DNA of 64,000 bases from Tubulanus polymorphus (GCF_964204645.1 NC_134031.1:8494001-8558000); one strand, 5' to 3'. Shown: positions 2,791-54,281, numbered from the stretch's first letter. Made by a program: numbers and translations. Notes: a model not told the origin generated them from the sequence alone.

Positions 2791-3581
2791 AAATGAAACC
2801 ATTCCAGATATCATTATAATTAATTTGATATTCTCTTGATTTCTGTATATAAGGTGTAATACATTTACAATACTTTCACTCATTTTTTAGTTAAAATATA
2901 TGAAATAAATTGAATTAAAAGACATCGTCTAAATCTTTTTCTAAATTAACTTTTTTATTTTTTTATGATTATTTCCATTCAACTTCTTTAATTTCTTACT
3001 TAATTTCATATTTTCATTAATCAATTGATATTTTCATAATAAAAGTACAACGCAGCCAATATTAAACCCCAGCAACTAAACAATGTTTCAAATCACTTTT
3101 TCCAGTTGGAATGCTGAAACCATTCTCATTCATTTAATTAAGAAAAAAAACTAAAAGAATGATAAGTAATTTGAAATATCTTATTTTGAATATATAATCA
3201 TTTATAATCATCTTTAAAATATTAGACTTTTAAATGATTAAATCAAATAACAATTAGACTTACAGTCTAACAATTTAACAGTTATTCATTAACTAATTTC
3301 ACAATGTTTTAACTATTATACATTTGAAATTTTCCAATTACTCATTCAGCTTACTCTTATTTCAATATAGAATTATTATTCTTTCCATAATTGATATGTT
3401 TCATTTTCTGATAAGGCTTTGATTTATGTGATATCAAATATTTGCCGCCACAATGATAATACACTTTCCCATTAGGATTAAACTTTTTAAATTCATTATC
3501 TAAATCACATTGAATTCCAATATTTGATGAATTTTCATTATAGATGATTTATTCATTATCAAAATTAAAATAATATAATTG

Positions 3582-4040
3582 TCATTTTTCAATTCTTAAG
3601 TTTATTATATCATTGTAATCTTTAGAAAGTATTAAATCATCATTTCTTTCATTAAAAGGAGTTTCAAGAATACTTATTATGTTTTCATCTAAATTACCTT
3701 TACAATTTAAAAATGTATTGAATACTGTAGGATTTTTTAGGTTGTTTACATAACTTATATCAACCCGCCATCTTATTAGTTCAGTAATTAAACATGTTTC
3801 TTTTAATGATATTTGATTAATCACAGTAATACTATCGATTTTATATTGGCTTCCATACACTAAATTTGTTGCTGAGATATAATTTTTAATGTTAAATAAT
3901 GAAAATAAGTTATCAATTTCTTTGATTTCGATTTTGAATTTAGGTTCTTCTTCTTCTGTCTTCATTTTTATAACAAAACTTTTATTAAAACTCATACAAA
4001 TATAAATATTCAATGTTAAAATATGAATCATTTCAATCAC
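3582..4040 (-). pseudogene. Uncharacterised element ORF-X remnant
   Basis: NLFSLFNIKNYISATNLVYG...KGNLDENII...PFNER...LILSKDYND..NLRIEK matches the 19363-20280 ORF; stop where element C reads R, with homology continuing past it. Confidence 0.75.
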
Positions 4041-4297
4041 ACCTTACTCACACTTTTTATGTTTTAAAATCAAGAATGTAACACATATAAATATAAATAT
4101 TCAATGTTAAAATATGAATTATTTCACTCACACTTTACTCTTTACACTTTTTATATTTAAAATTGATATTTTCATCAAATCGTTAATCACTCGTTACTTT
4201 TTATTTTATTTCACTCACCACTCACACTTTACTCACACTTTTATTCGAAATCTATGATATTCATATAAATAATGTTCATTTATATGAAATTATTAGA

Positions 4298-4393
4298 AGT
4301 AATGGGGAAAGTGTTGTTTCATATCAGAGGTTGAAGGGGAGAGTGAGCTCGACCTTTCGACCTCTGGTATGAAACAACACTTTCCCCATTACT
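4298..4393. repeat. Terminal hairpin of element A
   Basis: AGTAATGGGGAAAGTGTTGTTTCATA ... TATGAAACAACACTTTCCCCATTACT, 26-bp perfect arms plus an imperfect inner stem. Confidence 0.95.
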
Positions 4394-5971
4394 TACGGCG
4401 AAAGTAGGCCTACTGGTACGTTTACGAAAAATGAAAAACATTTTCAGAAGGGCAACTTGATTTTTTGTGATGTTGTGGTCCAAAGTCTGTGGTTTAGGAT
4501 AGCGTGCCTACCAGATCAGATTCAGATTTTTTCCCTTAGATTTTCGATTAGTCAAGGACAACCTGAAAATTTGAGGGGGATCTATAGGCCCCTAAACCCC
4601 CGTCTCAATCCGCCCTTCCTCAATCCACAATTATAGTACTGTCTATCTGAAAGCACCTCTTTCTAGAATGTGAATCGTCAGGATGAGCCTCTACCTCACA
4701 ACGATTCGAAATGACTCAGGGGCGAGGCCAGGATTTTCTAAATGAGTGTGTGGGGGGTCCGTTAGGGGGTTGCCTAGGCCCCTCGCTAATATAATTTGAG
4801 AAAAACCGTTAATGCGTGAGTTTTCAAAAGGTTTTAAAAAGGGCCTGTATCCTTTTTCGTTTGAAGAATATTTTGGGGCCCAAATAAAGGGAAATTCCTA
4901 AATGTTTTCACGTGGTTCAAGCGGTATACTAGGGCTGTCCCTGGGATGGATCCAGCGTCAAAGGCAGAGGTATCCAGGCCTTGTTTCTAAACTTCGCTAC
5001 AATCTCGTCGTTCACATACACATTGATTTTCTAGACTACCTAGAATTGGCAAAACAGCTAATCGCCTCAACAATTTTTGTATTTTTCCAATTTTTTCAAT
5101 CGCAATTTGGATCTTTCTTCAGAAAACAATACTTCCGAAATGAGAGAGGATTAGAAATTTCAAGGAATTTTAGGGGAGGGTCCCGGATCCCCATCAGGCC
5201 CATACAGAGAATTCTTTTGGGGAGTTCTACATGGGGGGAGGATGGTACCAAAAAGGCACCTTAACAAAAGGCAAGATAGCGATTGATCAATTTGAAAGAT
5301 TTGTTCTCAGTTTAATTTTTCATTTTTATTGTCCAGTAGAAAATTTACAACATTCCAGAAAACAAGGTTAAATGGGCGAAAATTCATTTTTGTTGATAGG
5401 TGTGGTTTTGCTACACTGTTGGTTGTATGTTGTATGATAATATAACAATACATGTGAATGGAAATTTCTGCTCATTGGAACTGGTACCGGTCAAAAGAGG
5501 GTTAAAACTGCCGGTCGCCGAACAAGAATGAACGACAACACTGAACTTGAACCTTTGGTGACATTGACATTGAGAGACGACTTAAACGAAAACGCTTCAA
5601 CATCCGACATACGTGTATATTCAAGTTGTGAAGAAAGAGGCAATGTTTAGAAACAAAGAATAGAACATGTGTGTCGAGAGTCGTTGATTCATAAGGTAAG
5701 TTGTGTAAATGTAAAATGCGCTCGTGTGCGGGGGCCTTAAGACCTTGATACACGAATACGAAACTATAATCCAATCCAAGATCAAACATGAAAGACCAAA
5801 CATAAACTCCAGTAACAAACTCGGTTCATTACAAACATGATTACTACATGTATCGTGTATAGAAACTGCATCAACTTCCATTTTTGCAGAAACCTGATAC
5901 TTGAAAATCTAACGATCCGAGCCAATTAGTTTATGAAATGTGAATTTCAATCATGAATTCGTCTGTGTGAG

Positions 5972-7093
5972 ATGTGGGAGCAGAACGAATCAACCAGTTC
6001 AGCCGCGCAGACTACAGTGCAGTTACTGGCAGTCGACTGCTCGTACAGCACTGATGGATTCTTCATGGCTATCATTCGACTCACTGGTGGAACTCTAATA
6101 ACTTTAATGGGAATCATTTTCAATATTTTCAGTATAATAGTATTACGAAGGCAACCAGTGATTTCCGTATCCACCCAATTACTCATATACCTCGCGTACA
6201 CAGATATTGCATTTTTGTTATGTCGCGGTATTCGAGAACCGCTTCGGTATTGGGTCGGTTGGGCCGTCGAGGGTGACTTCATTTTTCGGCAAAAAGTCCA
6301 TCCGTATCCGCGATTCCGGCATATACCGGAAATCCTTTATGTCCAGCCGGATATATATCTGTCGATTGATTTTTTACGCTACGCAACGCACGTCTCACGG
6401 AACTGGTTGACTGTTTTAATCAGCGTTGAAAGGGCCGTATCGCTCGCGTTTCCATTTTTCGCCCGGGCTAAGATAACTAAACGCCGAGTTTTATACGCGC
6501 ATATCTTAACATCTATGATTGTGTCGTCTGTTTATTTACCGCATATTTACGGGTTATGTCATTATGCCGATTTCGTTGGTTATGATATGTGCACAGGTCG
6601 ACCTGTGAGAGGTATTTTACATACGTTTAATTTTTGGGATCGATGGAGATCGGTAAGTCGCACGTATTTGAGTCCGGCAATTAAAGAAGTGCTACCTTTC
6701 ACGATTATCGTAATTTTAAATGTCTACATCGTCGCAAAAGTCCGTCAAATTTCACGAAATCAGAAAAAAATGACGGCAAAAGAAAGTGAATTAGTAGATT
6801 CTATGAAGGCTATTCGTTTGACTGTAGCCGTTTCAGTAATATTTTTGGTATTTGAACTGCCCAGTTCGTTTCAAAGTTATCAAAAATTTATCAGACTTTT
6901 CGTCGATATACAGGGAGTTTCTTTTCACGGAACATCGAAAAATGTGCAGAGATTTTTCGCCGAATTGTTTCCGATCGCGGACTCGTCTGCGAATTTTGTC
7001 ATTTATTGTTTTGTGCACGATCGCTTTAGACACACGGCAAAACAACTGCTGAGTAGACGATGTACGTATAGGGGTGCCACACGTCCATATTGA
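5972..7093 (+). CDS. Rhodopsin-class GPCR, FMRFamide-receptor/peptide-receptor-like (invertebrate expanded type), single coding exon
   Basis: 373-aa intact ORF with 7 hydrophobic segments: TM1 GIIFN, TM2 LAYTD, TM3 SVERA, TM6 FLVFELP, TM7 SSANFVIYC, helix 8 RFRH. Confidence 0.9.
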   Translation: MWEQNESTSSAAQTTVQLLAVDCSYSTDGFFMAIIRLTGGTLITLMGIIFNIFSIIVLRRQPVISVSTQLLIYLAYTDIAFLLCRGIREPLRYWVGWAVEGDFIFRQKVHPYPRFRHIPEILYVQPDIYLSIDFLRYATHVSRNWLTVLISVERAVSLAFPFFARAKITKRRVLYAHILTSMIVSSVYLPHIYGLCHYADFVGYDMCTGRPVRGILHTFNFWDRWRSVSRTYLSPAIKEVLPFTIIVILNVYIVAKVRQISRNQKKMTAKESELVDSMKAIRLTVAVSVIFLVFELPSSFQSYQKFIRLFVDIQGVSFHGTSKNVQRFFAELFPIADSSANFVIYCFVHDRFRHTAKQLLSRRCTYRGATRPY

Positions 7094-7319
7094 CGCCGGG
7101 CCGTCCATAACGGCAAAAACATTTGAAAAAATAAACTGTTCAATTGTCTTAAGCGCTGTTGATTTTTAATCCTGGATCTCGATATGCGTCTGCGAATTCT
7201 GGATTTTACAGAGGGTTGAAAACGAATTTTTAAATCCGTTCTTCAGTTGAACAGCGCATGAAAGCTATTCATTGTCAAAATTGGCTGAATGCAATATCTG
7301 CGTCTAATAAAGGAATCCA

Positions 7320-8208
7320 GGTAATAAAGCCATAGGTAAAAATGGCATAGGTAAAAATGCCAGAAGGAAATATGAGGAAAATTATGTGAAGATTTTATTA
7401 ACATTGTATGGAATTCCTCAAGGGCCATACGACTTACGAGTTACGATTTACGAATTACAATTTATTTTTGTCAACATTTGATAGATTTTGACGCTGTACC
7501 GACCGGCGGCTGGTCACCGCGCAGGATTTTCTGCCGTGATCTCACTATCTACAATACATTCTCTTAATTATTATTCTGTTTGAAATGGCATTTCGACTTC
7601 ATTTCGAAACAAGTTCTCTGAATAACGCGCCCTTCGGATATCTGAAGCCAATTAGTGAAAAACGTGTAAATGTAATTCGTAAAACGTTAGTAGCACGAAA
7701 AATTTGTAAAATAAAGAGAACCACAAATCTATAAAATACAGTCTAACATAGTTGCAATAAAATCATTGAAATTATTGATATTTTCATTTTCAATAAAATC
7801 ATTGAAATTATTGATATTTTCATTTTGAGATCATTGGAAATTGGAAAATTAACACATATTCTTATATAATTGTAATCAAAAAGGGAACATAGTCGTGATA
7901 TATAACACATTTCTAAATTAATGAACTTTAACAAATGAATGCACTGAGTTTACATATTGAATGCACAGTTTATATAAAACATATTTCTAGGTATAATAAT
8001 AGGTACGGTAATTAATTTTTTTAATCAATATAAATTTGTCATTCGTTTTTTAATTTATATGATCATAGGAATATGTTTGTATATCTAAACTGTGCATTCA
8101 TTACGTAAGATCTAGTGTAAATAAGAATATCAGGTCGAATGTTAAAAGATTCTTCGTTTAGTTTCCCTCATATTTCATTCTGGCATTTTTACTTCTGGCA
8201 TTATTACC
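7320..8208. mobile_element. MITE with subterminally repetitive TIRs
   Basis: GGTAATAAAGCC..GGTAAAAATGCCAGAAGGAAATATGAGG versus inverted CCTCATATTTCATTCTGGCATTTTTAC..GGCATTATTACC; a related end occurs at ~24649; TSD not resolved. Confidence 0.6.
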
Positions 8209-9384
8209 CTATAACAATTAACAATACACTAAAATTAACATTTTACTTGGTTTTGCTCAATTAACTACTTTTAGATTATAAAACTTTGGTTTATTTCAAC
8301 AATGAGTATGGCCTGCAAATTTAAATTTCGGGGGGACAAAATATTCATTCATTCTAAAAATTGTATTACTAATGTTCCTAATTTTTGCTGGAATCTAACG
8401 GACTTGGTGATTTATGGTACAACAAAATTACACCGGGCCTGGAGCTTTTTACCGTAAGGGAGCGTCCAAAAACTATGTATCTCTGATTGGGGGAGGGGGG
8501 TTACTGAATTTTGGTACAAAGTGGTACATGGGGGAGGGGGGTCAGCAAAAAAGGAACGTACTTTGAGGGAAGAGGTATTAATCAATCTTGGAACGTACTT
8601 TATGCACCCAAACTCAAATGAAAATAGCCGATACTGGTGTTTAATCGGCTTTTAGTGACTTGTTCAAGCGACTTGTAGTAGACTTCAACTGGGAATTCCC
8701 CATACCAGGTACCGGTATCGATCTTACACGCCGCACTTGTTGGAACCAGGTATTTATATTTTTCATATTTTGTTTTGATTTGTGTTCTTTGCATCAATAT
8801 AATTGGGGGGGGGGGGTCATGGGTATCATGGTACGTACCTATGAGGGGTCAGTGAATTTGGTACAAAGGTGGTACAAGGGGGGTCAGAAAAACGAGAGAA
8901 CTTTTGTTAATTGATTCATACAAGTATATTCTATTCTCATTTTAACTGTGTTAATGTATGTAACTGCATGAATGCGTGTATCATGTATGAGTAATAGGGA
9001 TAATAGGCTTTCAGATCAAAGGTCGAAGGGTCGAGCTCGTAAAAAAATGAAAATAATAATAATTTACAGTTGAATTAGTCGCGCACACTCCTAATTCAAC
9101 TGTAAATTATTATTATTTTCATTTTTTACTCACTCGCCCCTTCAACCTTTAACCTGAAAGCCTATTATCCCTATTACTCTTAAAATAATCATATACATGA
9201 ATAACATTTAAATTGACAGATTATTCAATATAAAAGTATATATTTACAACATTATTTCAATATTCATATTTGTATGAGTTAGATTTTTAAACATTAAAAG
9301 TGTTAGTAAAGTGTGATTGAAATAATACATGATATAAATCATTGAACTTCTAAAATCAATTTAAAAAAAAAATTTGATATTAAA

Positions 9385-10182
9385 ATGGAAGCAAATAAGT
9401 ACTACTGTCCAACATGTAATATCAATATAGATAAATCCCAAAAAGCAAGACACAATAAAACTAAAACACATTTAGAGAATAAATTGAAACTAGAATATAA
9501 AGATGATATATTAGAAACTAAATTAGATGAATTAAAGAATGAAAAAGAAACATACAAATGTGATACATGTAATCAATCATTCAGTGATAAAAGATATTAT
9601 AATGAACATTTAAAATCTAAAAGTCATATTAGAAATATGAATGATGATATTTTAGGTGAAGATTATTTTGATAAAGATAATGATAAGAAACAGAAGACAA
9701 TTAAAAGCATAAAAAATAAATTAAACAATAAAAGACCATACATGGAAGATGTAAGAAATTATATTAATTCATTAGATAATAATAAAGATATAGAGATAAC
9801 CGAAGCATTTAAAAGTGATATTGGTCCAGCAGCTATCGAGTTTAAATTTCATAAAGGAAAAACATTAGAAGAAAATAAAAAACATTTAGAAAATATGAAA
9901 GAAATAATAAAAATAATAACTGATGTTGAATATCCTAAAATAAGTATTTCATCAAAAGTTAAATTCATAAAATCTGAAGATAAACCAATATACAATATAA
10001 ATTCTCATTCACAACATATTATTTCATAACAACATATAGATGATAAATTAGATAAATGTTATAATGAAGTAAAAACTAAAATAGAAGAGAAATATTTTGA
10101 AGGATCTGGTTTAATATTTGATGAAATAATATTTATGACTTTACATGTTTATAACACCAATAAGGGTAAAAAAATATTTTAA
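9385..10182 (+). pseudogene. N-terminal part of a Polinton-type protein-primed DNA polymerase B (two C2H2 zinc fingers plus terminal-protein-like region), truncated by internal deletion
   Basis: CPTC..H..H and CDTC..H..H fingers. Reading through the stop at 10027-10029 gives KIEEKYFEGSGLIFDEIIFMTLHVYN, resembling the conserved EGSGW..(I)..L.I motif of Polinton pPolB N-termini (recalled, not searched). Confidence 0.65.
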
Positions 10183-10252
10183 AGCGTAAGGTTTCAGCGA
10201 ACTCTAACTCTTTTTGAATTTTAACCTATTTTAATAAAAATTTGATATATAA

Positions 10253-11677
10253 ATGTGCTCAAGATTAATTAAAGTTCCCGTGAAAGACATGAGTAATAAA
10301 TATATAAATTCAATATTATATTATCTAACTGTTAACAATAATTTAGCAGATATTTCAGGAGTAAATATAAATAAGTATTATAAATCTGAAAATAATGAAT
10401 TAATTGAAACATCAGATATTTTTTGCGATAATATAATGCTATATAAAATCATGTTAGAAAAAGAAATTATAAAAGAAAATAGAACAACTTTTCTAAACGT
10501 TAATCAGAGAAAGATAACACATTATGAAATTAAAGAATGTTTTAATCAAGGAGATATTATATTGGATAACTTAGCTATAAAAATTACACGTGTTTTAACA
10601 ATTCATGATGATAATTCAAAATCATATATATTAAGTAGAATTAATCAAGAATTGAAATTAACAGATTATATTGCTGTATTTAAAATTTCATTATGCAATC
10701 AAAATTTAAATGAATTAATACAGAAAATGGATAATATTGAAAAATTATTTAATGAAAAAAATTACAATATATTAGATGTAGATGTGACACAAGATTTTAA
10801 AGGATCATTTAATTCAGATGAAATAAAATCAATGTTCGAAAATAGAAAATATAAAGTTCTAAAAGAATTTTCCAATATTTGTGTTTCAGCATTACATAAG
10901 GATGATAAAATAAAGATCTATAATAAAACAGCATGACAATTCAAATCTCCTGGTGTAAATATAAATTTCGGTTCAAATTTAATGAGTTACATAAATTGCT
11001 ATCAAGAGAGGTTAAAAGAATCATTTGAAAAATCAATTGAAACAGGATTGATTAGAATTGAAATAACTAGTATTTCATTTAAAAGAGGATTAAAAGTGAT
11101 GGAAAAAATAAAACAATACTTAAAGAAAGAAAATATTTACTATTCACCTGCATATTTACAACTTAAATCATTATTTGATGAGGTTCAACAGACTGTATGT
11201 ATTTATGACTTGATTGAAAAATGCTTTTATTTCTGTTATTATGGTGATTTATTAGCAAGGAAATTTATAGGATATAAATCTAGGATAAGTAAAAATATTG
11301 AAGAGTCCTCCTTTTTACTTATTTTATCAATGTTTACAATTAAGAATATCCCGTGTTTATACCTAACAATTAATCAAAATGATGATAAATCAGAATTCAT
11401 TATTGAAGCAAAAAAATATATTTAAACTGAAGGAGCAACTGTTATATCTTCAACTAATTCAATGTTTACAGTACTGAATAAATTTATATTTAGATTTAAA
11501 TTACGTGAAACAGGAATTAGTTTTACAACTTTAAAAAAGAGATACAATATAAAATCTAAACCTTTTTATAAATTAGATGCACTTGATATTGAAGAAGATT
11601 TTGATTTAAAATTATTATCTAAAAGTGAATTTAAAAAGTTAGAAGAAATGAAAGAACTTAAAAATAGGCGTTCATAG
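10253..11677 (+). pseudogene. Putative Rep_trans-like (rolling-circle initiator/nickase) protein, ~474 codons with two in-frame stops
   Basis: ORFs 10253, 10982 and 11462 share one frame. Motifs IILDNL, DVDVTQD, IKIYNK, LIRIEIT occur in Rep_trans order. The copy in element C has Cys where this copy has TGA. Confidence 0.55.
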
Positions 11678-12734
11678 CCCTGATAGACACTTTATTTTAT
11701 CAAAATTAGAAAAACCTATTTTCCAAGTAAAGAAAATAACACACAATCATTTTGAAATAATTGATAAAATGGATTTTGAATTGATGAAAAAATATACTGA
11801 ATAATTAAAGATAAATTCTAATGATTTTATAAATGTATGTGATATGCGTAAAGAATCTGATTATTTAAGAAAAATGAAACTTAACAATATGAAAATTAAG
11901 CAATGCGAGCGTTTAGAACTATTGAAAGATAATTCTGAATATAAAATTGAAAGATTTAAATAAAAAAACAATAAGTTAAATAAGTTAGTATTAGATAAAG
12001 TAACTTATTGTTTTTTTATTTAAATCTTTTTGATTTCTATTCACGCTATTGGTTAACAAGAATTGACTAGAATTCAAATAGATTTAACAAGAAATTCAAT
12101 AACTTTAACTGTTAGTATCACTCTTGTATTATTTCATTGAATTATTTCACTCGTTAATTACTCGTTACTTTTTATATTGAAAATAAGAATTTAACGCATA
12201 TAAATATAAATATTCAATGATTTAAATATGAATTATTTCAATCACACTTTACTAACACTTTTAATGTTTAAAAATCTAAATCATACCAAATATAAATATT
12301 GAAATATGTTTAAAATATATCTATATATCTATTTATAAGAGCTCGTTAATTACTCGTTACTTTTTTACTCACACTTTAATAACACTTTTATATTGAATAA
12401 TCTATCAATTTATATGTTATTCATGTAAATTATGTTTATATATATATATGAATATTTTAAGAGTAATAGGGGTGATGGGCTTTCAGGTTAAAGGTTGAAG
12501 GGGCGGGTGAGTAAAAAATGAAAATAATAAAAATTTTCAGTTGAATTAGGAGTGTGCGCGACTAATTCAACTGTAAATTATTATTATTTTCATTTTTACG
12601 AGCTCGACCCTTCGACCTTTGGTATGAAAGCCTATTATCCCTATTACTTGTATGAACCTGTTGCTTTTTGCTTTGTGCCAGTGTAAATTGTTTGTGGAAA
12701 CTAATTGTTACTGTAATTGTAATGTCGGCTAAAT

Positions 12735-13105
12735 TCTGTAATTCATTTGTAATTCATTTCAGCTAGCAACACAGTGTCATCTGCATATAAAAGAATTAGT
12801 AATCTAAACCACAGTGTACCCTGGTCATTAAGAAAAGTAATGCCTTCGCAGCCCTCATTAATGAGATAATTTTCCATATCATTCACAAAAATGGAAAAAG
12901 GTATAGGCGAGAGATTTTCTCCTTGCCTTAAACCTACAAATGATTCAAAATAATCCGATGCCGCTCCGTTTAAGCAATGAAGACTTGGCATTTTGATAGA
13001 TACTGCGAGTAACTCTCAGTATTTTACCTGTAATACCCAAATCAATTACTTTATGCCACATGGCCTTACGCCATATGGTATCGAAGGCTTTACGAAAGTC
13101 TATAA
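12735..13105 (-). mobile_element. Non-LTR retrotransposon (LINE) reverse-transcriptase fragment
   Basis: FIDFRKAFDTI, GLRQGENLSP, LLYADD across a frameshift. Confidence 0.9.
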
Positions 13106-13113
13106 ACATTTTT

Positions 13114-14543
13114 GGCGCTAGTCCAGTATACGACATTATAGTGCGTGCGTAGAGTTACACTGCGTTATTCGGTCAGTGTTCACAGCAGTTGACCGTTGAC
13201 AGTCGACACCTAAAGTAAACTATGAGAACAGGTGGCAACCTGTCAACCCGTCAACCAGCACTGAAGTATAACAGTTTTTCCACCCCTTTAACTGCTATTT
13301 GTCTTCATAATTTTCATTGTCTCTCATAAATCCATTGCGTATTATAAAGTTGCGGATGATTCGGATGATATCGACATTTCGAAACACAAAAAGGCATGTA
13401 TATATAACATTCAAATATAATATATCTAGATAGCTATTAAAATTGGTGGAAGGGTGGTTTTTATGTTGATTTGACAAATCGTTGGTCCTAAATAACCTTG
13501 GGAAGGTTTTTAGCATAGTTAAAAATGTGAATGATTAGGGTTAAGGTTCGGGTTAGGTTTAGAGATAGAGGTTAGAGGACCAAACCGAAGGTTTGGAGAG
13601 ACCCCACTAGTGCACGGGCAGGGGGTTATCCCTGTAAACAAAGTATGAGTTATGTTGTAGTGAGGCGGTCTACGGGACGTTGATGCCTCGGGGCGTGTTC
13701 GTGTCTAGAGTTAAGGGTTACTATGAGGCTTCAATTCAGGAATCAGTGAACTATACCATTGGCAGTTGGGAGACTGTTTCTCTGTTAAGGAACATGAATA
13801 TATCATTTAATATTATAGACGTCTGACGCTGCTGTATGTCTCCACTGATGTGTATGTCTGCACATCAACCAACCTATCGAAGACAAGTTTCCTGCTAGTA
13901 TATGATTAAATGATATATAAAATATTACATCAATTGATTTTAGGGAATAATTAATTAGGAAGATGTCCTCGAAACAGAAGACTAGACGATTAGTATACGC
14001 GTTCACACGGAATCTAGGTGAGAGGCCTATCGTTAACCGTCCGGTACAGTTATCACCTTACTGAGGGTGTCTACCTGTCATCCATCCTGTGCGATCATCA
14101 CCTAACTGTTGTGTAGGGTGTCTACCTGTCAACCGTCCAGTGCAGTCATCACCTAACTGTTGTATTGGGTGCTACCGGTTAACCGTCCTGTGCAGTCATT
14201 ACCTGACTGTTGTATAGGGTGTCTACCTGTCGTCCGTCCTGTGCAGTCATCGCCTAACTGTTATGTAGGGTGTCAGCTGTCAACCGTCCTGTGTAGTCGT
14301 CACCTAACTTGTGTGTAGGGTGTCATCTGTCAACCGTCATTTAGAGTCATCACCTAGTATGTAAGGTGTCGCGTGTCATCAGCTGTAAAATATGATCCCC
14401 AATCAAGGATCTATTTTCATGGAACTTCTTTTAGTTCCATATTACTACGCTTTTATATATTTCAGCTTGCGCATTAATTCCCCGATTTACTCCAAAAGTA
14501 TCTCTACACGTTGCACTATAATGTCGTATATCGGACTTGGGCC
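13114..14543. mobile_element. Non-autonomous DNA transposon, Merlin-like (GG termini, 8-bp TSD, internal ~46-bp tandem repeats)
   Basis: ~41-bp imperfect TIR GGCGCTAGTCCAGTATACGACATTATAGTGC / GCACTATAATGTCGTATATCGGACTTGGGCC; TSD ACATTTTT at 13106-13113 and 14544-14551; tandem units at ~14030-14380. Superfamily assignment is tentative. Confidence 0.75.
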
Positions 14544-14644
14544 ACATTTTTTTGCAGAAAGCTGATACTTGAAAATTTAACGATCCGAGCCAATTACAAT
14601 GGTTTATGATATGTAAAATTCAATCATGAATTCGTCTGTGTGAG

Positions 14645-15570
14645 ATGTGGGAGCAGAACGAATCAACCGGCACAGCCGCGCAGACTACAGTGCAGTTACT
14701 GGCAGTCGACTGCTCGTACAGCACTGATGGATTCTTCATGGCTATCATTCGACTCACTGGTGGAACTCTAATAACTTTAATGGGAATCATTTTCAATATT
14801 TTCAGTATAATAGTATTACGAAGGCAACCAGTGATTTCCGTATCCACCCAATGACTCATATACCTCGCGTATACGGATATCGCATTTTTGTTATGTCGCG
14901 GTATTCGAGAACCGCTTCGGTATTGGGTCGGTTGGGCCGTCAAGGGTGACTTCATCTTTCGGCAAAAAGTCAATCCGTATCCGCGATTCTGGCATATACC
15001 GGAAATCCTTTATGTCCAACCGGATCTTCATTTGTCGCTTAATTTTTTACGCTACGCGACGCACGTCTCACGGAACTGGTTGACTGTTTTAATCAGCGTT
15101 GAAAGGGCCGTATCGCTCGCGTTTCCTTTTCTCGTCCGAGCCAAAATAACTAAACGCCGAGTTTTATACGCGCATATCTTAACATCTATGATTGTGTCGT
15201 CTGTTTATTTACCGCATATTTACGGGTTATGTCATTATGCCGATTTCGTTGGTCATGATATGTGCACAGGTCGACCTGTGAGAGGTATTTTACATACGTT
15301 TAATTTTTGGGATCGATGGAGATCGGTAAATAGCACGTATTTGAATCCGGCGATTAAGGTAGTTCTACCTTTCACGATTATCGTAATTTTGAATGTCTAC
15401 ATCGTCGCTTAAATCCGCCAAATCTCAAGAAATCAGAAAAAAATGACGACAAAAAATTAATTCGTAGATTCTATGAATGCTATTCGTTTGACCGTCGCCA
15501 GTTCATTATATTTTTGTTATTTGAACTGCCCAGTTCGTTTCAAAGTTATCAAACATTTATCAGACTTTTC
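14645..15570 (+). pseudogene. Pseudogenised tandem duplicate of the 5972-7093 GPCR
   Basis: Highly similar from the upstream TTTTTGCAG (~14548). Stops at 14852-14854 and 15410-15412, a frameshift in TM6, and loss of homology after ~15570 (TM7 missing). Confidence 0.93.
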
Positions 15571-16009
15571 TTCGCAGCACAGCAGCGATAACGGGTTTCT
15601 GCCTAATTGGTTCATATGTCGAACTGGGAAGCGTAAGAAGATTTCATCGAAATAATTCTAGCCCATAACATATGACTATTGCCAAGAAGCGCAACCTGGG
15701 TCAACATTATGCTGGATATGATATGTGGATATTAGGAGTCCATTTGTCAAAGCATTGAAGCAATACAGTCCAACTTGTTTATGATGTCTCAGATGGAGCG
15801 CGCGGGGCAGGGCCGTCATTATATTGCTGACTTATCCAAATTACACTTACACAGCGCAACGTCTTTCAGTGTGTAAACTCCGTCGTACGCATTATAGGAC
15901 AGTGAGGAATTGAATTTTAGCCACGAGCCCTTGGCTTGATTGGAGCAAACGACCTTAAATGACTTCACAGAATTTGATACGAGTCTAGGACTTTCTAAAT
16001 TTTTGAAGA

Positions 16010-16444
16010 ATGCTTTCTCTGGTTTTGAGATCAATTCTACGTCGTTTCGGTGCGAACAAAGATGCTAGTTCCGCTTCGCCGCTGGCGACGGAAATTATAC
16101 AGAAAGGAGACTCGCCGTTGGCGGTTTCGGAACAGACTACTTACATTAGTAAGTCGAAAAGTACATCTAAATCACGTTCCAGCACAGCAAGGGGCAAAGC
16201 GCCTGCCAAGAAAAATAGTGCTGCAGACCATAATAATAACAGAACAAATTCGAAAGTTGATGCAATATCCTCAGCCCTAAACACACTGTTCGAAAATCAA
16301 AAAGCATTGTTTGAAAAAGTTGATATCATGTGGAACGCTGGAAATGAAGATAACGAAATGTCGAATTATGAACATTTTGCTCAAGATGACTATGAGAAAG
16401 AAGCTCCTAACAAATTGCCAGGCTCTCGATTCCGGGTGAAATAA
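16010..16444 (+). pseudogene. Probable DIRS ORF1 (gag-like) N-terminal fragment
   Basis: Ser/Lys-rich segment followed by a coiled-coil-like stretch just inside the DIRS left end; position-based call. Confidence 0.45.
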
Positions 16445-16454
16445 CTCATAATTC

Positions 16455-16946
16455 CCCACTGAGTACTGTAGCTTTCTAATGGTGCGCCATGTTTCTTTGC
16501 AATTTGTAATGGGTATTCTTTGGAAAGGGTTCTTTTATATCCGAGAGGGTATTTTTGACCAGGCAATTATGACGCACTTGACGGCCATCTTGGGGTCATC
16601 AGTACTCATTCGTAGGTGGAAAAAAAGTTTTTCCACATCATAATTGATACTTAAGCATATTTTGCTACTATAATCAATTGGAAAGTTGTAGCTCATGACA
16701 TGTTCTATGATCGAGGTGAGTTTCAAGCTCATTGGTTTTTTTTTAATGGCCACCAGGGGGCGTTGAACAATACAATAACTTAGTATTTCTATATTACATT
16801 CGTTCCTGCTGTCTGTGTTAACACACGATTTTACTATGTAAATGATATTGAGCAGGGAGTGTATATTGATAAATATAACCCACAGATTACATCATTTATA
16901 AAAAGCAAATCTGACAGGCTGGCCATTGTGCCCCTTGGGGCTCTTG
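16455..16946 (+). mobile_element. HINE/pearl-like element 3' fragment
   Basis: ~16495-16803 aligns with ~62325-62630; ends in a short GC-rich stem GGCCATTGTGCCCCTTGGGGC. Confidence 0.7.
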
Positions 16947-17776
16947 TTTAAATGAAATACTCGTTATTTCGATTCTAATTAAATCTGTTTCAATTGATTT
17001 TTCAAATGATTCTTTTACCTTTCTTGATAGAAATTTATGTAACTCATTAAATTTGTACCGAAATTTATATTTACACCAGGAGATTTGAATTGACATGCTG
17101 TTTTATTATAGGTTTTTATCTTATCATCCTTATGTAATGCTGAAACACAACTATTAGAAAATTCTTTTATAACTTTATATTTTCTATTTTCGAACATTGA
17201 TTTTATTTCATCCGAATTAAATGATCCTTTAAAATCTTGTGTAACATCTACATCTAATATATTGTAATTTTTTTCATTTAATAATTTTTCAATATTATCC
17301 ATTTTCTGTATTAATTCATTTAAATTCTGATTGCATAATGAGATTTTAAATACAGCAATATAATCTGTTAATTTTAATTCTTGATTAATTCTACTCAAGA
17401 TATATGATTTTGAATTATCATCATGAATTGTTAAAACATGTGTAATTTTTATAGCTAAGTTATCTAATGTAATATTTCCTTGATTAAAACATTCCTTAAT
17501 TTCATAATGTGTTATCTTTCTCTGATTAACGTTGAGAAAAGTTGTCCTATTTTCTTTAATAATTTCTTTTTCTAACATGATTTTATATAGCATTATATTA
17601 TCGCAAAATATATCTGACGTTTTATTTAATTCATTATTTTCAGATTTATTATACTTATTTATATTTACTCCTGAAATATCAGCTAAATTATCATTCACAG
17701 TTAAATAATATAATATTGAATTTATGTATTTATTATTCATCTCTTTCGCGGGAACTTTAATTAACTTTGAGCACAT
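16947..17776 (-). pseudogene. Second copy of the Rep_trans-like gene (frameshifted, 3'-truncated)
   Basis: Near-identical to 10253 onward; DVDVTQD, KTYNK, LIRIEIT retained. Confidence 0.55.
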
Positions 17777-17794
17777 TTATATATCAAATTTTTA

Positions 17795-18393
17795 TTAAAT
17801 TAAATTAAAAATTGAAAAAGAGTTAGAGTTCGCTGAAACCTTACGCTTTAAAATATCTGCTGATTCGATATTATCTGGTTTATTTATTGTAGGTTTGAAA
17901 TTAGAAAATGTTATTACGCCAGTAGAAATTAATATCATTATTCCGCCTAACAGGAATGAAGCGTATCCAACCCATTTTTGTAATTCTGTCATAACTAATA
18001 AATCTTTTTTTAAATCGCTATATAATTTATTTTCATCATCAATTGGTATTACTTGGTTACATAATTTAGAATAACATTTTATAATACCATCACTAATAGA
18101 GTCATTTATTCTTGCTAATCTAGCTTCTTCATATATTTTGAAATGTTTTATTACTTTATCTGGTTTCATATTATCTAATTCTTGAAAAGTAATAATTTTT
18201 CCATAAATTCCTTACATTTACCACTAGCAATTAGTAAATCAAGATGGTGCTTACATGTTAAATAGTATTCAAAATCAATATTATTATTATTTTCAGCACA
18301 ATTAGAAACAACTGTATCTTTATTATCTGTGATACCTAAATCTTCAATTGTCTTTTCAATATCAATATTATTTTTACTCGATTTCTTTGACAT
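17795..18393 (-). pseudogene. Uncharacterised element protein with a C-terminal hydrophobic (TM-like) segment, frameshifted
   Basis: ORFs 18175-18393 and 17795-18169 join through a frameshift (LIASGKCKEFM..ELDNMKPDKV..YEEARL..LYSDLKKD..FLLGGIMILISTGVIT); resembles uncharacterised proteins of invertebrate Polinton-like elements (recalled). Confidence 0.5.
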
Positions 18394-18694
18394 TTATATT
18401 AGAGAAAAAAGCGAAAAAAATATTATAAGTATTCTTCAAATGATACTAGCTAGTTAAATATAAAGAATTTTAAATACTAGCTATTTGAAGTTAAAGAATT
18501 TTTATTCGAATCTTATCAAAATCTATTTAATCTAGTTTTCATAAGAAAATATTAGATTTTGAAAAAAATTAAAATAGAAATAATGGCTAGTTAAAGATAT
18601 GTAATTTTTAATATTTTGTATTTGAATTAGGATTTAGAATATCTCACTACTTTTGTCTATCTATAGGAGCAGTTACTATAACTGTCCAGATAAG

Positions 18695-19417
18695 TCATTT
18701 CGGATCCTCGATAATAAATTCCTCCTCAACGTATCGTTCATTATTTGGATCATTGTTCCATAATTCAATAAATTTCTTTGCTTTATCTAATTGATCCAAA
18801 TATAATTTTATGTCAAGTTTATTTCCTTTCCTAATATTTTCCTTCTTTTCAAGAGGCCTTAAATTCTTCCAATTCCTTATTAATTTCTGGTTGTATTCAT
18901 CATTCATGTTAAATTTAGAAATCGGCAACACATGATCAATGTGGAAATATTCACCATAATTATTCATATTCATTTTTTCATTGAACTGATATATAATCCA
19001 GGATTTGAGAAATTCATATGAACAGCCTAATAAATTAGATAGTGTGGCTGAATGCGTTTCTTTATTGAATAATTTTGATAATCTATTACCTAGACATTGT
19101 TTCAATTTAAAATTAAGATCCGTTTTATATCTTTCTTTTCGATAATTCTTATCGTACACTTTAATATGTCCTCGATTTTTTTCTCTCCATCGTTAATCTT
19201 TTTCTTTACATTTTTCTGCATTAATTGCTCGATATTGTTTATTATTCTGTTTCCAACATGTTTTACAAATATTACGTAAACCATCTTTGTAAAACTTATG
19301 TTTATAATATTCTGCTAATGATTTATTTATTTTACACTTTGAACATTTTTCATTATATATATTTATAACACCAGTATTGTTTGTAATATTGATAGTTTGT
19401 GATTGTTCTGGCTCCAT
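18695..19417 (-). pseudogene. NCLDV-type HNH-like endonuclease with N-terminal CxxC..CxxC finger, frameshifted
   Basis: KCSKCKINKSLAEY..DGLRNICKTC, then LLGCSYEFL..MNNYG..FHIDHVLPISKF..NWKNLRPL..ENIRKGNK. Confidence 0.75.
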
Positions 19418-20280
19418 TTATAATACATATTTTTATTAAAATTTATTTCCATATTTCCATATTTTGAGTTATGATATTCTGATTTAAGATGGTGTGATTT
19501 ATTGCTTCGAGTATAATATTTTCCACAATTACATAAAACGCTTTCATTAGGATTATATTTAGGCGTAACAATTTCATTATCTAAGTTACATTGAATTCCA
19601 ACATCTTTATAAGACTTATTATTATCTAATTCACATTGAATTCCAATATTTGATGAATTTTCATTATAGATAATTTGTTTATTATCAAAATTTAAATAAT
19701 ATAATTGTCTTTTTTCAATTCTTAAGTTAGTCAAATCATTATAATCTTTTGAAAGTATCAAATCACTATCTCTTTCATTGAAAGGAGTTTGAAGTATATA
19801 TATTATGTTTTCATCTAAATTACCTTTATGATTTAAAACGGTATTACATATTTTAGGATTTTTGATTCCATTATCTATTAGTTTAATAATTAAATATGCT
19901 TCATTTGATAATATTTGATTGATTATAGAAATATTATCAATTTTATGTTTTCTTCCATACACTAAATTTGTTGCTGAGATATAATCTTTAATGTTAAATA
20001 ATGAAAATAAGTTATCATTATTCATATTTCTAATATGATTTTTAGATTTTAAATGTTCTTTATAATATCTTTTATCACTGAATGATTGATTACATGTATC
20101 ACATTTGTATGTTTCTTTTTCATTCTTTAATTCGTCTGATTTAGTTTCTAATATATCATCTTTATATTCTAACTTAAATTTGTTTTCTAAGTGTGTTTTA
20201 GTTTTATTATGTCTTGCTTTTTGAGATTTATCTATATTAGTTTTACATGTTGGACAGTAGTACTTCTTATTTGCTTCCAT
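19363..20280 (-). CDS. Chimeric ORF: pPolB N-terminal zinc fingers fused to ORF-X (C-terminal C2H2 finger)
   Basis: The first ~87 aa match the 9385 ORF; from DNLFSLF onward it matches 3582-4040; CNCGKYYTRSNKSHHLKSEYH near the end. Confidence 0.6.
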   Translation of the reverse strand: MEANKKYYCPTCKTNIDKSQKARHNKTKTHLENKFKLEYKDDILETKSDELKNEKETYKCDTCNQSFSDKRYYKEHLKSKNHIRNMNNDNLFSLFNIKDYISATNLVYGRKHKIDNISIINQILSNEAYLIIKLIDNGIKNPKICNTVLNHKGNLDENIIYILQTPFNERDSDLILSKDYNDLTNLRIEKRQLYYLNFDNKQIIYNENSSNIGIQCELDNNKSYKDVGIQCNLDNEIVTPKYNPNESVLCNCGKYYTRSNKSHHLKSEYHNSKYGNMEINFNKNMYYKWSQNNHKLSILQTILVL

Positions 20281-20478
20281 TTTGATATCAAATTTTTATT
20301 AAAATTGATTTTAGAAGTTATTCATATATAAAATATTCATTTATATATGTTATTCATTTATATATGTTATTCATTTATAAAAATATTAAAGTAATTGGTA
20401 ATGTGTTTGTTCAAGTCAAAGGTTGAGTCCAGTGAGTAGAAAAATAATATGGCTTGAACAAACACATTACCAATTACT

Positions 20479-20919
20479 CAGATTATGAAAGCAGAAACTT
20501 CAATGACAATGTTGAGTGGAAGCTGAATAGCCAGGTTTTTTCTGTGATAACCAAGATTTTTGGGTTTCCAGAAATAGATTTATTTGCATCAAGACATATC
20601 GCTCAGTTGGTAGATTATGTGTCTTGGAGGCCAGATCCCTATGCAAAATATATTGACGCATTATCGTTGTCATGGACTAATATGAAATTTTATATGTTTT
20701 CTCCTTTCAGCCTTATCTCTACATGTGTACAAAATCCAGAGGGACTGCTGTCAGGAAGGTATACTCGTTGTTCCCTGTTGGACTACCCAAGCCTGGTTTA
20801 CGCGGTTGAGAATTCTAATACAAAGACCATTAGTTCTACCAAGACTCGAACATTTATTAACTCTTCCCAATCAGGAGAAACTACACCCGTTGCGGGAAAA
20901 ACTACGTAGTTCTTTTGGG
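20479..20919 (+). pseudogene. DIRS pol C-terminus: RNase H end plus methyltransferase-like domain
   Basis: (A)DYESR, EWKL, IDLFAS, DALSLSW, YMFSPF (YxFPPF-like), ILVVPCWTTQAWF. Confidence 0.85.
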
Positions 20920-21926
20920 ATGCAGGGTTTCAGGAATGTCATGGAAACAACAAGAATTTCGCAGAGGACTACCGAAATCATGTGGGAATCGTGGAAATAC
21001 TCTAACTTGATTAACTTTTGTGACAAACGGTCGATTAATAGATTTTGTGTATCTATAGCAGAATTTTTGGATTTTCTGACGGAATTGTACGATGCAGGGC
21101 TTAGTCTTAGTGCTATTAATACTGCAAGGTCGGCAGTGTCAAAAGTAATTTCAGATGATTCTGATGCTGGTGTCTCGGTAGGGGCACATCCATTGGTGGT
21201 TCGTTTCATGAAGGGGGTGTACAATACAAAAACGCCTCAACCCCGATACAGTACAGTCAGGGATGTAAATATTGTTTTAGATTGGATACGTAGAGAGTTA
21301 CCTGATTCGTCGAGTTTATGTTTAAAACGTTTGACAATAAAAACTGTAGTTTTAATCAGTTTAGTGTTAACTGCTAGGAGGCAGTCTATAGGGCTTTTAG
21401 ATATAAAAATGTGTAAAACTTATTCAGAATACAGATTTCAATATAATGTTAATGATCTTAAGCAATCTAGACCAGGGTATAGGCCTCCGGATGCTATTAT
21501 CAAGAAATTCGAGGAGGACTGCAGGATTTGTCCGTATTTAGCATTGACAGAGTATATTTAAAAGTCTAGTGCCATTCGGGGTGATGTTACACATTTGTTT
21601 GTTGGGACGATAAAGCCTTATAGATCACTTAGTTTGGACACATAAGTAGGTGGATTAAGCAAGCACTGAAAGAAGCTGGTGTAGATACATCGGTCTTTAA
21701 GTCACATAGTCTTCGGGCGGCAGCAGCTTCCAAGGCAAATAGCAAAGATGTTCCTATTAATTATATACTGAATACTGGAGGTTGGGCGAAAGCTACGACA
21801 TTTGCTAGGTTTTATTGCAAACCAATTATAGACTCCAGTGCTGTGAAAGATTGGAAATCACATACTTGGTTAAAACATTGGAATTTGAATCAGAGTGGTG
21901 CAAGTAATAGATATACTGGATTCTGA
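20920..21926 (+). pseudogene. DIRS tyrosine recombinase (stop codon and frameshift)
   Basis: SAINTARSAVS, HPLVVRFMKG, TARRQS, KQSRPG, FKSHSLRAAAAS..GGW....FARFY. Confidence 0.92.
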
Positions 21927-22900: not shown

Positions 22901-23584
22901 GAATTCGCGGTTGAGTTTGACGCTCGAGGTCGTCCGGTAATTTGTAGGCTTTTCGGGATGTACTTTTATCAATGGATGACAATGCTTTGCGTTATTCTTT
23001 TCGCTGTTTAGACCCGGTTATTACACGGGATTAATTCATAAAAGATTACTATACGCAAATTCGAAATGGTCAGGCGCTTAGTTATATTTCTGACAGAATT
23101 TAAAATTACGTTTATAAGCTGTTGGTAGTCGAATCTGAGAGGAGTTACATTTTATGAACAATTTTTGGCTGGAAAGTGGACCATTAATGATAATAATAAT
23201 CAACAGAAATACAAGAGGGTTTCTGCGAAAGCAGCAGAAACCCTAATAAGTTTTCAATTCAGTTCGTTCAGCTGATTTACTGTAATCAATCATTCCAGTG
23301 CGATTTTGATATTACTCCTAGTTTCGCTTATTCGATGAGACGACATTTTAACCTGGAAGTAACTCGATATTGACATGTTTGACATGCATCGAAAATGTAA
23401 AATGGAGGATGGGATCACCCGGTCTCTACCCGACTCAAACTGAGGTTATATACTGGTGTACCAGAACACCAATTCAATATGGCGGCTATCGATGGATTCA
23501 GTGGCGCCACCGTACTACACCCGAGAGAACTTGCGTTGTCTCGGCGCATGTTTCAGTTTGGTCTGATAGGTCACGCCTCAGTAG

Positions 23585-25074: not shown

Positions 25075-25472
25075 CATCTTCACCCGTCAAGGGATTCGAA
25101 CCCACTACGCTAAAGCTATTCCCCGAACCCCTATATACTGGTGTACCATCCTCGCTTGCCAGGGGTCCGGTATCACTACCGAACTCGCTTCCACCAGCCC
25201 CCTGGCCTCACGAAGCGTGATTTCATTACTGGCGCTGTTGCGCATGACGTCATATATCGATTTGCGAAATACTTCCTTGTTCAGTAAAACGTTCGCTGAT
25301 TGGTCCATTTAACGGGAAAACCAATAGAAGCCTAAAGTCGTTTGTTACAAGCGCTGTGATTGGTACGACCGGATTCTGGTCGGCTAGTAACCACTCCAAC
25401 GACTCGTGAGGTCAAGGGGTTCGGCGAACAGCTTTAGCGTAGTGGGTTCGAATCCCTTGACGGGTGAAGATG
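25075..25472. mobile_element. MITE with ~57-bp TIRs
   Basis: CATCTTCACCCGTCAAGGGATTCGAACCCACTACGCTAAAGCT.. is inverted at ~25415-25472. Confidence 0.8.
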
Positions 25473-48341: not shown

Positions 48342-48381
48342 TCCTAATTACCGTTGTATCGTGCATTACTGGCGAGTTTAA

Positions 48382-54151: not shown

Positions 54152-54281
54152 GGATCTGTATCCTAATAACTGTCGCTGATTGGCCGATAAACGCCCGCCA
54201 TTCAAGGAAAGTGTGGAGAATATAGTTAGAGAACAATAGAGTGGATCAAGCGAGACTCGAACCTGGGCCAGTAAATAACTA

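Follow-up and report, generated by a model that had tools for sequence, protein, structure and literature searches.

Analysis of a 64,000-nucleotide stretch of Tubulanus polymorphus DNA (the window) revealed that its terminal hairpins form the tips of terminal inverted repeats (TIRs) in deleted Polinton/Maverick copies belonging to a high-copy family. Each end consists of two tail-to-tail copies, outer and inner, of one spaced signal, AGTAAT-N14-TTCA-N4 followed by tandem AGGTYGA-like boxes; the two arms covary, and the asymmetry of their boxes has one fixed orientation. The explanation that we favour, and to which we give an even chance, is that the 3' strand at the tip folds back and rebuilds the duplex end signal for protein-primed replication. 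The assignment to Polintons is based on the TIR and target-site duplication (TSD) of copy 2, the pPolB remnants in copies 2 and 3, and a relative, L001, in which pPolB is joined to an rve integrase.

A preliminary description had placed three such hairpins at 4298-4393, 8990-9178 and 20390-20478, and its coordinates and stems proved correct: the perfect stems measure 26, 25 and 26 bp, respectively, while in 50 local shuffles of the window every stem stayed below 25 bp. All three ends are present, but a fourth, at 12462-12648 with a perfect stem of 10 bp, had been omitted. The spaced arm motif occurs seven times in the window without a mismatch (eight times with at most two; chance mean 1.14). 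Within each of the three noted ends the 14-nt segment is matched at 14 of 14 positions, as had been claimed, versus 7, 9 and 4 of 14 between copies; the fourth end reaches only 11 of 14, with three G.T wobbles inside the segment. The supposedly common motif GGTTGA...GTGAG is found in the inner arm of all four ends, but the outer arm differs, reading GGTCGA...GAGCTC in the three ends that have retained this region; inner and outer arms are not interchangeable. Likewise, the proposal that structure is conserved and sequence is not holds for the spacer and the inner A+T stem, but not for the AGTAAT, TTCA and AGGT boxes, which are conserved in sequence at fixed positions. The AGTAAT tip is kept on both arms in all five complete hairpins. 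The left hairpin of copy 2 (8990-9178) comprises outer arm, A+T stem, loop and inner arm, and its right hairpin is the fourth end. Copies 1 and 3 have short hairpins with loop or outer box deleted: that of copy 1 (4298-4393, terminus at 4393) lacks the inner A+T stem and loop, and that of copy 3 (20390-20478, terminus at 20478) has lost the outer-arm box. This shortening may represent post-insertion decay; a deletion class matching the short hairpin of copy 1 (joint 9036-9131) was seen in 15 reads.

Copy 2 extends from 8990 to 12648, its hairpins directly abutting 6-bp duplications of TGTATG (8984-8989 and 12649-12654). Its left TIR (8990-9346, ~350 bp including the hairpin) is partnered by 12213-12648. 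The plus strand carries a 5' remnant of pPolB (9385-10170), which encodes two zinc fingers and a predicted terminal-protein domain, is interrupted at codon 215 by a stop and is cut off near 10157-10170. It is followed by a broken Rep_trans-like gene (10253-11963, plus strand, stops at codons 228 and 391, homology to ~11948) with a modelled TBP-like fold and the motifs DxTxD, KxKxYNK and RxE. At 11936-12043, by the 3' end of this gene, lies an internal A+T palindrome, possibly a transcription end signal; further fold-back palindromes lie at 1032-1526 and 1554-1660. In copy 1, the subterminal TIR interior (3963-4297) is homologous to that of copy 2, and an A+T-rich segment (1617-1747) to 11952-12082 of copy 2. 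Its coding segment on the minus strand (3495-3941) recurs in copy 3 (19621-20042, 82%), and no function was found for it. The other ends of copies 1 and 3 are missing; neither the far end of copy 1 within the window nor a TSD for this copy was found. A hexamer flanking copy 3 was rejected as a TSD, as it recurs at 16883 and 17641 with no element tip after it.

Copy 3 has the same gene order as L001. On its minus strand are the zinc-finger start of pPolB (20013-20280), an ORF homologous to L001:4079 (18695-19417), a broken ORF (17795-18393) homologous to L001:5149, the gene between pPolB and integrase in L001, and the 5' part of the Rep_trans-like gene (16947-17776, 94% identical to copy 2), beyond which the copy is lost. 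The ORF at 18695-19417, without a Pfam match, is presumably HNH-like, judging by its motif. The rve integrase is absent from the deleted window copies and present in the syntenic L001 (Pfam rve, E 6.5e-9). No HUH family was detected among the 17 window ORFs scanned, with the copies incomplete, and an Rfam scan of 900-21000 gave no matches.

Reads from another sample of T. polymorphus suggest ~800-900 ends: 862 junction reads were counted before 8990 and 1033 behind 12648, with 1590 in a narrower mapping. These junction reads agree at only 0.34-0.35, which indicates many insertion sites; only 79 of 7647 reads fitted two places. Among 25 typed variants at paired positions, for 16 the list also contained the complementary change at the partner position, giving eight mirrored pairs, three of them transversions. 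These pairs flank the conserved asymmetric box on both sides. This covariation is a population-level signal, unphased on molecules and drawn from 40 of 61 entries, and the mirrored frequencies are unequal (for example, 38% versus 53%). The compensating changes probably arise by local copying between the arms.

The mismatches within the hairpins indicate which strand folds. In five hairpins, 19 G.T and no A.C mismatches were counted on the 3'-terminal strand, corresponding to 11 distinct sites against none (binomial p 0.001; the hairpins are related and the sites are not fully independent), while eight other palindromes of the window gave 17 versus 20. The TIR interior of the 3'-terminal strand is not G-rich. 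As transition mismatches are G.T at 11 of 11 distinct sites on this strand, it is likely the one that folds back on itself, although in the c3R hairpin of copy 3 and in that of L004 both strands fold almost equally well. Selection on the fold-back, as suggested in the preliminary description, is supported by the eight mirrored pairs and by wobbles confined to the 3'-terminal strand. The bias shows which strand folds and not for what purpose; a self-priming hairpin predicts the same bias.

The same architecture is found in metagenomic relatives, the closest of which are partial contigs of 3.6-7.2 kb. The ORF at 9385 is 59-67% identical to three full-length pPolBs (P0138-P0140). In L004, a 257-nt AGTAAT..ATTACT hairpin (190-446), with the 6+14+4+4 spacing of the window, lies upstream of a full-length pPolB; L002 begins inside a hairpin of this type and encodes a near-identical enzyme with a predicted terminal-protein domain. 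The hairpin spacing is kept in contigs whose pPolB is only ~60-67% identical to that of the window. In a model of the L002 N-terminal region, nearly all top matches were Y-family polymerases, including an isolated little-finger domain (best E 2.8e-3), a signature of terminal-protein domains in the text consulted (PMC11161782); we predict such a domain in the pPolB of both L002 and the window. All 25 sequences compared share the putative vOTU Cys, and P0138 contains an endonuclease-VII-like stretch (E 2.3e-4, under the Pfam cut-off). From motifs and this weak match, the family may belong to Polinton group 2 (pPolB1 clade). L005, a relative with full-length pPolB, has one arm-like motif and no partner arm, and the more distant pPolB loci L007-L040 have hairpins without the AGTAAT architecture. 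An exact scan for the end motif found none in viral or metagenome contigs; six viral matches to a relaxed motif had no partner arm (best 12-14 of 24) and were dismissed as chance. Searching for loci with protein queries recovered no relative from either viral contigs or prokaryotic genomes.

The Rep_trans-like gene carries the family's upstream motif in copies 2 and 3, but its read depth is ~5% of that at the pPolB start (37 versus 781), and none of the 40 metagenomic loci, themselves partial, contains it. Structural models support a TBP-like catalytic fold: the model of homologue P0003 (pLDDT 93) gave TBP Z ~7.8 over ~150 residues with rmsd 3.8-4.8, Foldseek ranked RepDE (4cwc) second (E 1.1e-3), and a structural match to inovirus G2P was obtained (E 3.1e-5). 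Among 70 aligned sequences, Y204, K206 and D162 are conserved in all 70, D158 in 69, R249 in 68, and E251 and D46 in 66 each. They include the presumed catalytic Tyr in YxK and acidic metal ligands. This pattern fits the residues of RepDE named in the text consulted (PMC4797284, PMC13107129), by order and spacing and not by superposition. The product is a candidate tyrosine nickase, judging by these motifs and models. As the PF02486 profile matched neither the window ORFs nor the homologues scanned, the gene is filed as Rep_trans-like and not as a member. No significant match to a solved structure came from a profile search with the family, RepDE was not among the 50 matches listed in either VIA-align search, the ESM Atlas returned no usable match, and tblastn with P0003 found none in phages or plasmids. 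Homologues are annotated in Planococcus citri. A relationship between the Rep-like C-termini and a small ORF upstream of pPolB in L002 and L004 (E 0.013 or worse) was dropped.

To our knowledge, neither the exit of Polintons from the chromosome nor the initiation of their replication has ever been shown, and we saw no replication intermediate or free genome. Adenovirus replication includes a panhandle step. In the mechanism that we favour, strand-displacement synthesis from one end would leave a single strand, whose far 3' end would snap back locally without waiting for a genome-long panhandle. In the folded end, AGTAAT, TTCA and the tandem boxes would be double-stranded and set at constant distances; the terminal protein-pPolB could load there, and the end would be protected. 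In the 14-nt spacer and the inner A+T stem only length and pairing would matter, and hence both could drift between subfamilies, while selection and local template switching would keep the arms matched. The conserved mismatched box might mark the working arm for priming and for the integrase.

Alternatively, the 3' end itself may be the primer, after which a nuclease would resolve the dimer or closed end on a single arm, in the manner of an MVM-type left end; this we consider possible but doubtful. Once folded, the 3'-terminal strand would offer a paired 3'-OH with its own sequence as template, and it is precisely this strand that carries the G.T bias. Single-orientation fixed asymmetry is described for parvoviral left ends in the pages consulted (PMC1185569), and the text seen of a preprint on Halocafeteria proposes hairpin priming for terminal palindromes (10.64898/2026.07.28.741278). 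The nuclease could be the Rep_trans-like tyrosine nickase, whose gene in copies 2 and 3 is preceded by the family's upstream motif, or the endonuclease-VII-like pPolB insert, as in the sub-threshold stretch of P0138. However, in hairpin-ended relatives pPolB is complete, with both the vOTU Cys and a predicted terminal-protein domain, the Rep-like gene is scarce in reads and missing from the partial metagenomic loci, and no tip-to-interior joint was present among the 15 joints listed. A more specific idea, improbable in our estimation, is that one Polinton sub-lineage recruited a Rep_trans-type (non-HUH) tyrosine nickase, of a class known to date from bacteria and archaea alone, to nick or resolve the asymmetric, single-orientation 3'-strand hairpin, in the slot where L001 has its integrase; if true, this would be a eukaryotic rolling-hairpin replicon combining Polinton ends with a plasmid-type initiator.

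It is also unlikely that the hairpin is an integration or excision signal, in which a chromosomal cruciform or looped-out strand would place the rve integrase or a resolvase for excision and priming would be independent of the hairpin. The hairpin abuts the target duplication exactly, the AGTAAT tip stands on both arms in five of five complete hairpins, and the text consulted of the same preprint links terminal palindromes to particular RVE integrases (10.64898/2026.07.28.741278). Yet a cruciform folds both strands, so that a one-strand bias of 11:0 is unexpected, and solo hairpin scars account for at most 8% of inner-arm reads. Still less probable is a neutral by-product, an ancient snap-back that duplicated the end, with template switching keeping the arms alike without function. 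The family is prone to fold-back rearrangement (1032-1526, 1554-1660, 11936-12043), L005 has no partner arm, and G.T-sparing repair in a transient fold could yield the strand bias without selection; but the box asymmetry is fixed while the stems on either side are homogenised, and the spacing persists across the divergence in pPolB noted above. AAV-type ends exist as flip and flop, and hairpin transfer of this type should leave ~50% of the ends inverted. Such transfer, or independent MITEs at the ends, both raised in the preliminary description, is scarcely credible, in spite of the perfect 25-26 bp stems, the formal AGTAAT..ATTACT boundaries and small opposite-strand joints in the reads (8-14 reads each). 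The read-depth ratio is 0.09 across the outer end versus 0.92 across the inner, without a depth break there; at most 8% of the inner-arm depth ends at 9178, a ceiling for flip/flop isomers (expected near 1:1) and solo hairpins together. No reversed loop occurred among the 12 read inserts listed, and the inner-type box lies inside in all four window ends. None of five hairpins (four in the window and that of L004) has its own target duplication, which speaks against both self-contained mini-elements and inserted MITEs.

The ends thus provide a cis-signal that is short and open to testing, in which compensatory changes have arisen naturally over hundreds of copies and one strand is indicated as folding. 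Polintons have 6-bp TSDs and AG...CT tips. In the accounts consulted, Polintons/Mavericks (Polintoviricetes) carry pPolB with TP-vOTU-Exo-Palm organization, an rve integrase and TIRs (PMC11296320, PMC11161782). The family described here resembles them in its pPolB remnant, long TIR, 6-bp TSD and AG...CT tips, as well as in the rve gene beside pPolB in L001. It differs in that each TIR starts with an asymmetric palindrome of 89-257 nt, for which our literature search found no description in animal Polintons; capsid genes were not seen either, but the window copies are internally deleted. Terminal palindromes are already known from protists, namely from Halocafeteria seosinensis virophages (subtypes 1, 2, 5 and 6) and PLV subtype 4, according to the text consulted (bioRxiv 10.64898/2026.07.28.741278). 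There, too, they lie inside the TIR and adjoin the TSD, and a replication role is proposed, untested. Those palindromes, 52 nt long in subtype 5, prefer non-pPolB replication genes in that text, whereas in the animal lineage studied here they occur together with a full TP-pPolB; terminal palindromes can evidently coexist with intact protein-priming machinery. The palindrome section of the preprint contains no analysis of inner/outer asymmetry or strand-specific wobbles. What is new is the strand-specific asymmetry, the coexistence with protein priming and the gene for a candidate Rep_trans-like nickase in ~5% of copies.

The left end of MVM/LuIII parvoviruses, with a single flip form and asymmetric dimer resolution, similarly combines a terminal palindrome, a conserved mismatch and one orientation in the pages consulted (PMC1185569). 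Unlike parvoviruses, the present family shows no HUH/NS1 gene or ssDNA capsid in its incomplete copies, integrates with a 6-bp TSD and has no flip/flop. The spacing of factor sites is a feature of the adenovirus ITR. With the adenovirus origin, as outlined in the text consulted (PMC9863843), the family would share protein priming, strand displacement and an origin at the tip, here proposed; yet the adenovirus ITR is not palindromic, whereas here an origin-like signal is duplicated tail-to-tail at each end. Finally, Rep_trans proteins are bacterial, with an archaeal sister family, in the account consulted (PMC13107129). The predicted TBP-like fold and the D46, DxxxD, RxYxK, RxE order are those of Rep_trans initiators (PF02486; RepDE, 4CWC) and archaeal Rep-Arvir in the text consulted (PMC4797284, PMC13107129), but the cargo gene, without a Pfam match, is carried by a eukaryotic Polinton and preceded by the family's own upstream motif; with it, the range of Rep_trans-like nickases would come to include mobile DNA of eukaryotes.

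All three hairpins of the preliminary description (4298-4393, 8990-9178 and 20390-20478) are present, with perfect stems of 26, 25 and 26 bp, and the covariation claimed for them holds: within each end the 14-nt segment matches arm to arm at 14 of 14 positions, whereas the copies match one another at 7, 9 and 4 of 14. No stem of at least 25 bp arose in 50 local shuffles of the window. A fourth end absent from that description, the right end of copy 2 (12462-12648), is matched at 11 of 14 positions. The arms share one layout, AGTAAT followed by 14 free bases, TTCA or TTGA, 4 bases and two tandem AGGTYGA-like boxes. All seven intact arm motifs of the window keep this spacing (6+14+4+4), as do, among metagenomic contigs carrying pPolB relatives, L004:190-446 in both its arms, L002 in the inner arm that survives and L005 in its lone arm; in the eighth window arm, the copy 3 outer arm, a box is lost. 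The difference between the arms is constant, with GGTCGA...GAGCTC in the outer box (tip side) and GGTTGA...GTGAG in the inner box (element-interior side). The variable A+T stem and loop lie internal to the boxes, and deletions within this part produce the 89-189 nt range of hairpin length. X5, a set of raw reads (about 12% of the run) from another sample carrying the same species label, also contains a deletion resembling that of copy 1 (joint 9036-9131, 15 reads) and stem variants of reduced length. At loop position 9086, 399 reads have loose letters before the position (agreement 0.8), representing either a loop variant or a rearranged subfamily. The single outer-type arm at L005:157-208 matches the outer arm of copy 1 with 96% identity across 28 nt.

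Copy 2 (8990-12648) is flanked on both sides by TGTATG and has TIRs of about 350 bp; the host DNA of the window is animal and includes a 7TM GPCR gene. Its first ORF, translated with X at its stop codon for comparison, shares 59-67% identity with the N-terminal parts of three proteins (1319-1365 aa) in which family-B polymerase motifs were read by eye, and a metagenome scan with these pPolB proteins gave at least 40 loci from at least 592 pattern matches. One contig, L001, contains pPolB, two ORFs that copy 3 has in the same order, one more ORF and an rve integrase. Nearly all top structure matches of the modelled N-terminal region of the L002 pPolB (pLDDT 79) are Y-family polymerases, an isolated little-finger domain among them, with no match reaching E 0.001; such likeness is a mark of terminal-protein domains according to the accessible text of PMC11161782. 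All 25 sequences compared have the putative vOTU cysteine. Taken together, the TSD and TIRs, the pPolB N-terminus, the L001 synteny with rve, the terminal-protein-like model and the vOTU cysteine identify the window copies as Polintons with internal deletions. In X5, 862 and 1033 reads cross the two tips of copy 2 into unrelated flanks, and the ratio of tip to flank depth suggests some 800-900 ends, a rough figure, since few reads underlie the flank depth of 3.0-3.4.

The left part of copy 3 seems to have been removed by deletion, and this copy adjoins a tyrosine-recombinase element (15800-16450 and 20479-21926; Phage_integrase E 4.4e-5, weak Dam-like match) that is presumably DIRS/Ngaro-like. 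A (TA)n tract forms the centre of a large palindrome that lies, with an inverted second copy, in or beside copy 1 (1032-1526 and 2320-2700); this is a fold-back rearrangement or an assembly artefact. A truncated protein-kinase-like ORF (348-1016; Pfam E 8e-4) ends abruptly at the A+T-rich region of the same copy. The GPCR gene (Srw family) occurs twice, at 5972-7093 and, broken, at 14630-15591, and its region looks tandemly duplicated. Tandem or satellite-like repeats, with units of 154, 59-76, 108, 144 and 166 bp, are found at 16643-16803 and 62452-63047, 23560-24610, 31514-31927, 47654-48347 and 2-333, and one unit of the 154-bp family adjoins copy 3. Immediately 3' of element genes lie A+T-rich segments, palindromic or related (11936-12043, 1554-1747 and L004:5890-6010), that resemble the transcript-end hairpins of giant viruses and virophages.

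Covariation was also seen in X5 at the population level, with variants unphased on single molecules. At the copy 2 left end 7647 reads aligned, 79 of them fitting two places; 40 of 61 variant rows were listed, and dropping 3 flank and 6 interior rows left 31 within the hairpin. Paired positions account for 25 of these 31, and 16 of the 25 have a complementary change listed at the partner, making eight mirrored pairs (9000/9168, 9005/9163, 9014/9154, 9057/9112, 9060/9109, 9066/9103, 9067/9102 and 9069/9100), three of them transversions, located both outside and inside the asymmetric box. Nine paired-position variants have no listed partner, four being at or adjoining the box (9028 twice, 9140 and 9039); partners of the other five may be among the remaining 21 of the 61 rows. 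Frequencies within a pair are unequal (38% versus 53%, 61% versus 32%), and therefore the arms are not perfectly copied each cycle, as copy 2 right also shows.

In five hairpins the outer spans were aligned and their mismatches scored on the strand written with its 3' end at the tip. Besides 10 transversions there are 19 G.T and 0 A.C transition mismatches (distinct sites 11 versus 0, p 0.001, the 11 not being fully independent of each other). Eight other window palindromes, taken as controls on the + strand, gave 17 versus 20; the TIR interior lacks a G excess on the same strand, and each of the three changes at the right end of copy 2 is G.T. Folding energy favours the 3'-tip strand by 5-11 kcal/mol in three hairpins and is equal in two. 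G.T-sparing repair would leave an identical bias, and the 3'-tip strand folds either way; deamination of the displaced strand would be expected to bias the 5' part, the opposite of that seen. Other long inverted-repeat, MITE-like elements (54279-54826, 60113-60586, 58158-58572 and 25075-25472) are unrelated to the Polinton ends and served only as controls.

Flip/flop hairpin transfer, raised earlier as one alternative, finds no support in the reads. AAV-type inversion would place about half of the flank-entering reads on the inner arm, breaking at 9178, whereas in X5 9% of the depth remains across the outer tip and 92% across the inner tip, where less is lost than in the next bins (87% and 86%). 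Position 9178 is not among the 6 of 158 loose-end rows listed, and the loop has one orientation in every loop-containing read among the 12 read inserts listed. The suggestion of self-contained mini-elements or solo hairpins fares no better, as the five complete hairpins all lack a TSD of their own and depth does not break at the inner tip. We give almost no credence to a flip/flop or MITE reading of the ends.

With roughly even confidence, we favour the hairpin as an origin of protein-primed replication that forms by local fold-back. One strand is displaced in adenovirus-type replication (PMC9863843, in its accessible part); that strand would have to start from its own 3' end, where a snap-back would immediately restore the duplex signal with its spacing. 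Such an origin agrees with a spacer of free sequence and fixed length, with the strand-biased mismatches, with the one orientation of the hairpins and with retention of the terminal-protein domain. Its chief rival, a self-priming hairpin with asymmetric resolution, has counterparts in the available portions of two sources, hairpin self-priming being proposed for Halocafeteria virophages (bioRxiv 10.64898/2026.07.28.741278) and asymmetric resolution described for parvoviral left ends (PMC1185569). Sequence cannot separate it from protein-priming fold-back, and we hold it to be rather unlikely. An integrase or excision signal appears improbable. L005, which shows a single arm, speaks against the hairpin being essential in any role; its 157-208 motif has no partner and lies upstream of a full-length pPolB. 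That the hairpin is a neutral by-product we consider very improbable.

Copies 2 and 3 also carry a broken Rep_trans-like gene (10253-11963 and 16947-17776), which in copy 3 comes after an ORF whose L001 counterpart is followed by a small ORF and then the integrase. Its homologues number 5 close and 132 distant (E <=0.001); in an alignment of 70 proteins drawn from both searches, the invariant residues follow the Rep_trans pattern. The model of one homologue, P0003 (pLDDT 93), shows a TBP-like fold, and Foldseek ranked RepDE second (E 1.1e-3) and, in the viral library, inovirus G2P fourth. Because the gene has no Pfam match and RepDE is not among the VIA-align matches listed, its predicted relationship is classed as Rep_trans-like only. 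Two of ten homologues looked up are annotated as Planococcus citri. An A+T-rich upstream motif common to this gene and pPolB precedes pPolB, Rep-like and other element genes and is probably a family promoter or translation signal; it stands directly 5' of ATG at 9355-9387, 10223-10255, 17774-17806 and 20278-20310, and also in L002 and L004. Read depth over the cargo gene is about 5% of that at the pPolB start; it therefore cannot be a general partner of the hairpin, and may act on it in one sub-lineage. Together with the homologues (P0002-P0137) it makes up an unnamed TBP-fold, catalytic-Tyr family, many members 600-1200 aa long, that is found in metagenomes and in the mobile DNA of eukaryotes; the family may represent a eukaryotic element or a Polinton gene and merits separate study. 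Rep_trans itself is bacterial, with an archaeal sister family, in the accessible text of PMC13107129, and the literature searched yielded no eukaryotic case.

Animal Polintons with terminal palindromes were not found in the literature searched, most subscription papers and Repbase reports lying outside its scope. The string 'palindrom' is absent from the available text of Jeong et al. (10.1101/2023.08.22.554363), and the accessible part of PMC11296320 mentions hairpins for poxviruses only. Terminal palindromes have already been published for protist virophages and PLVs.
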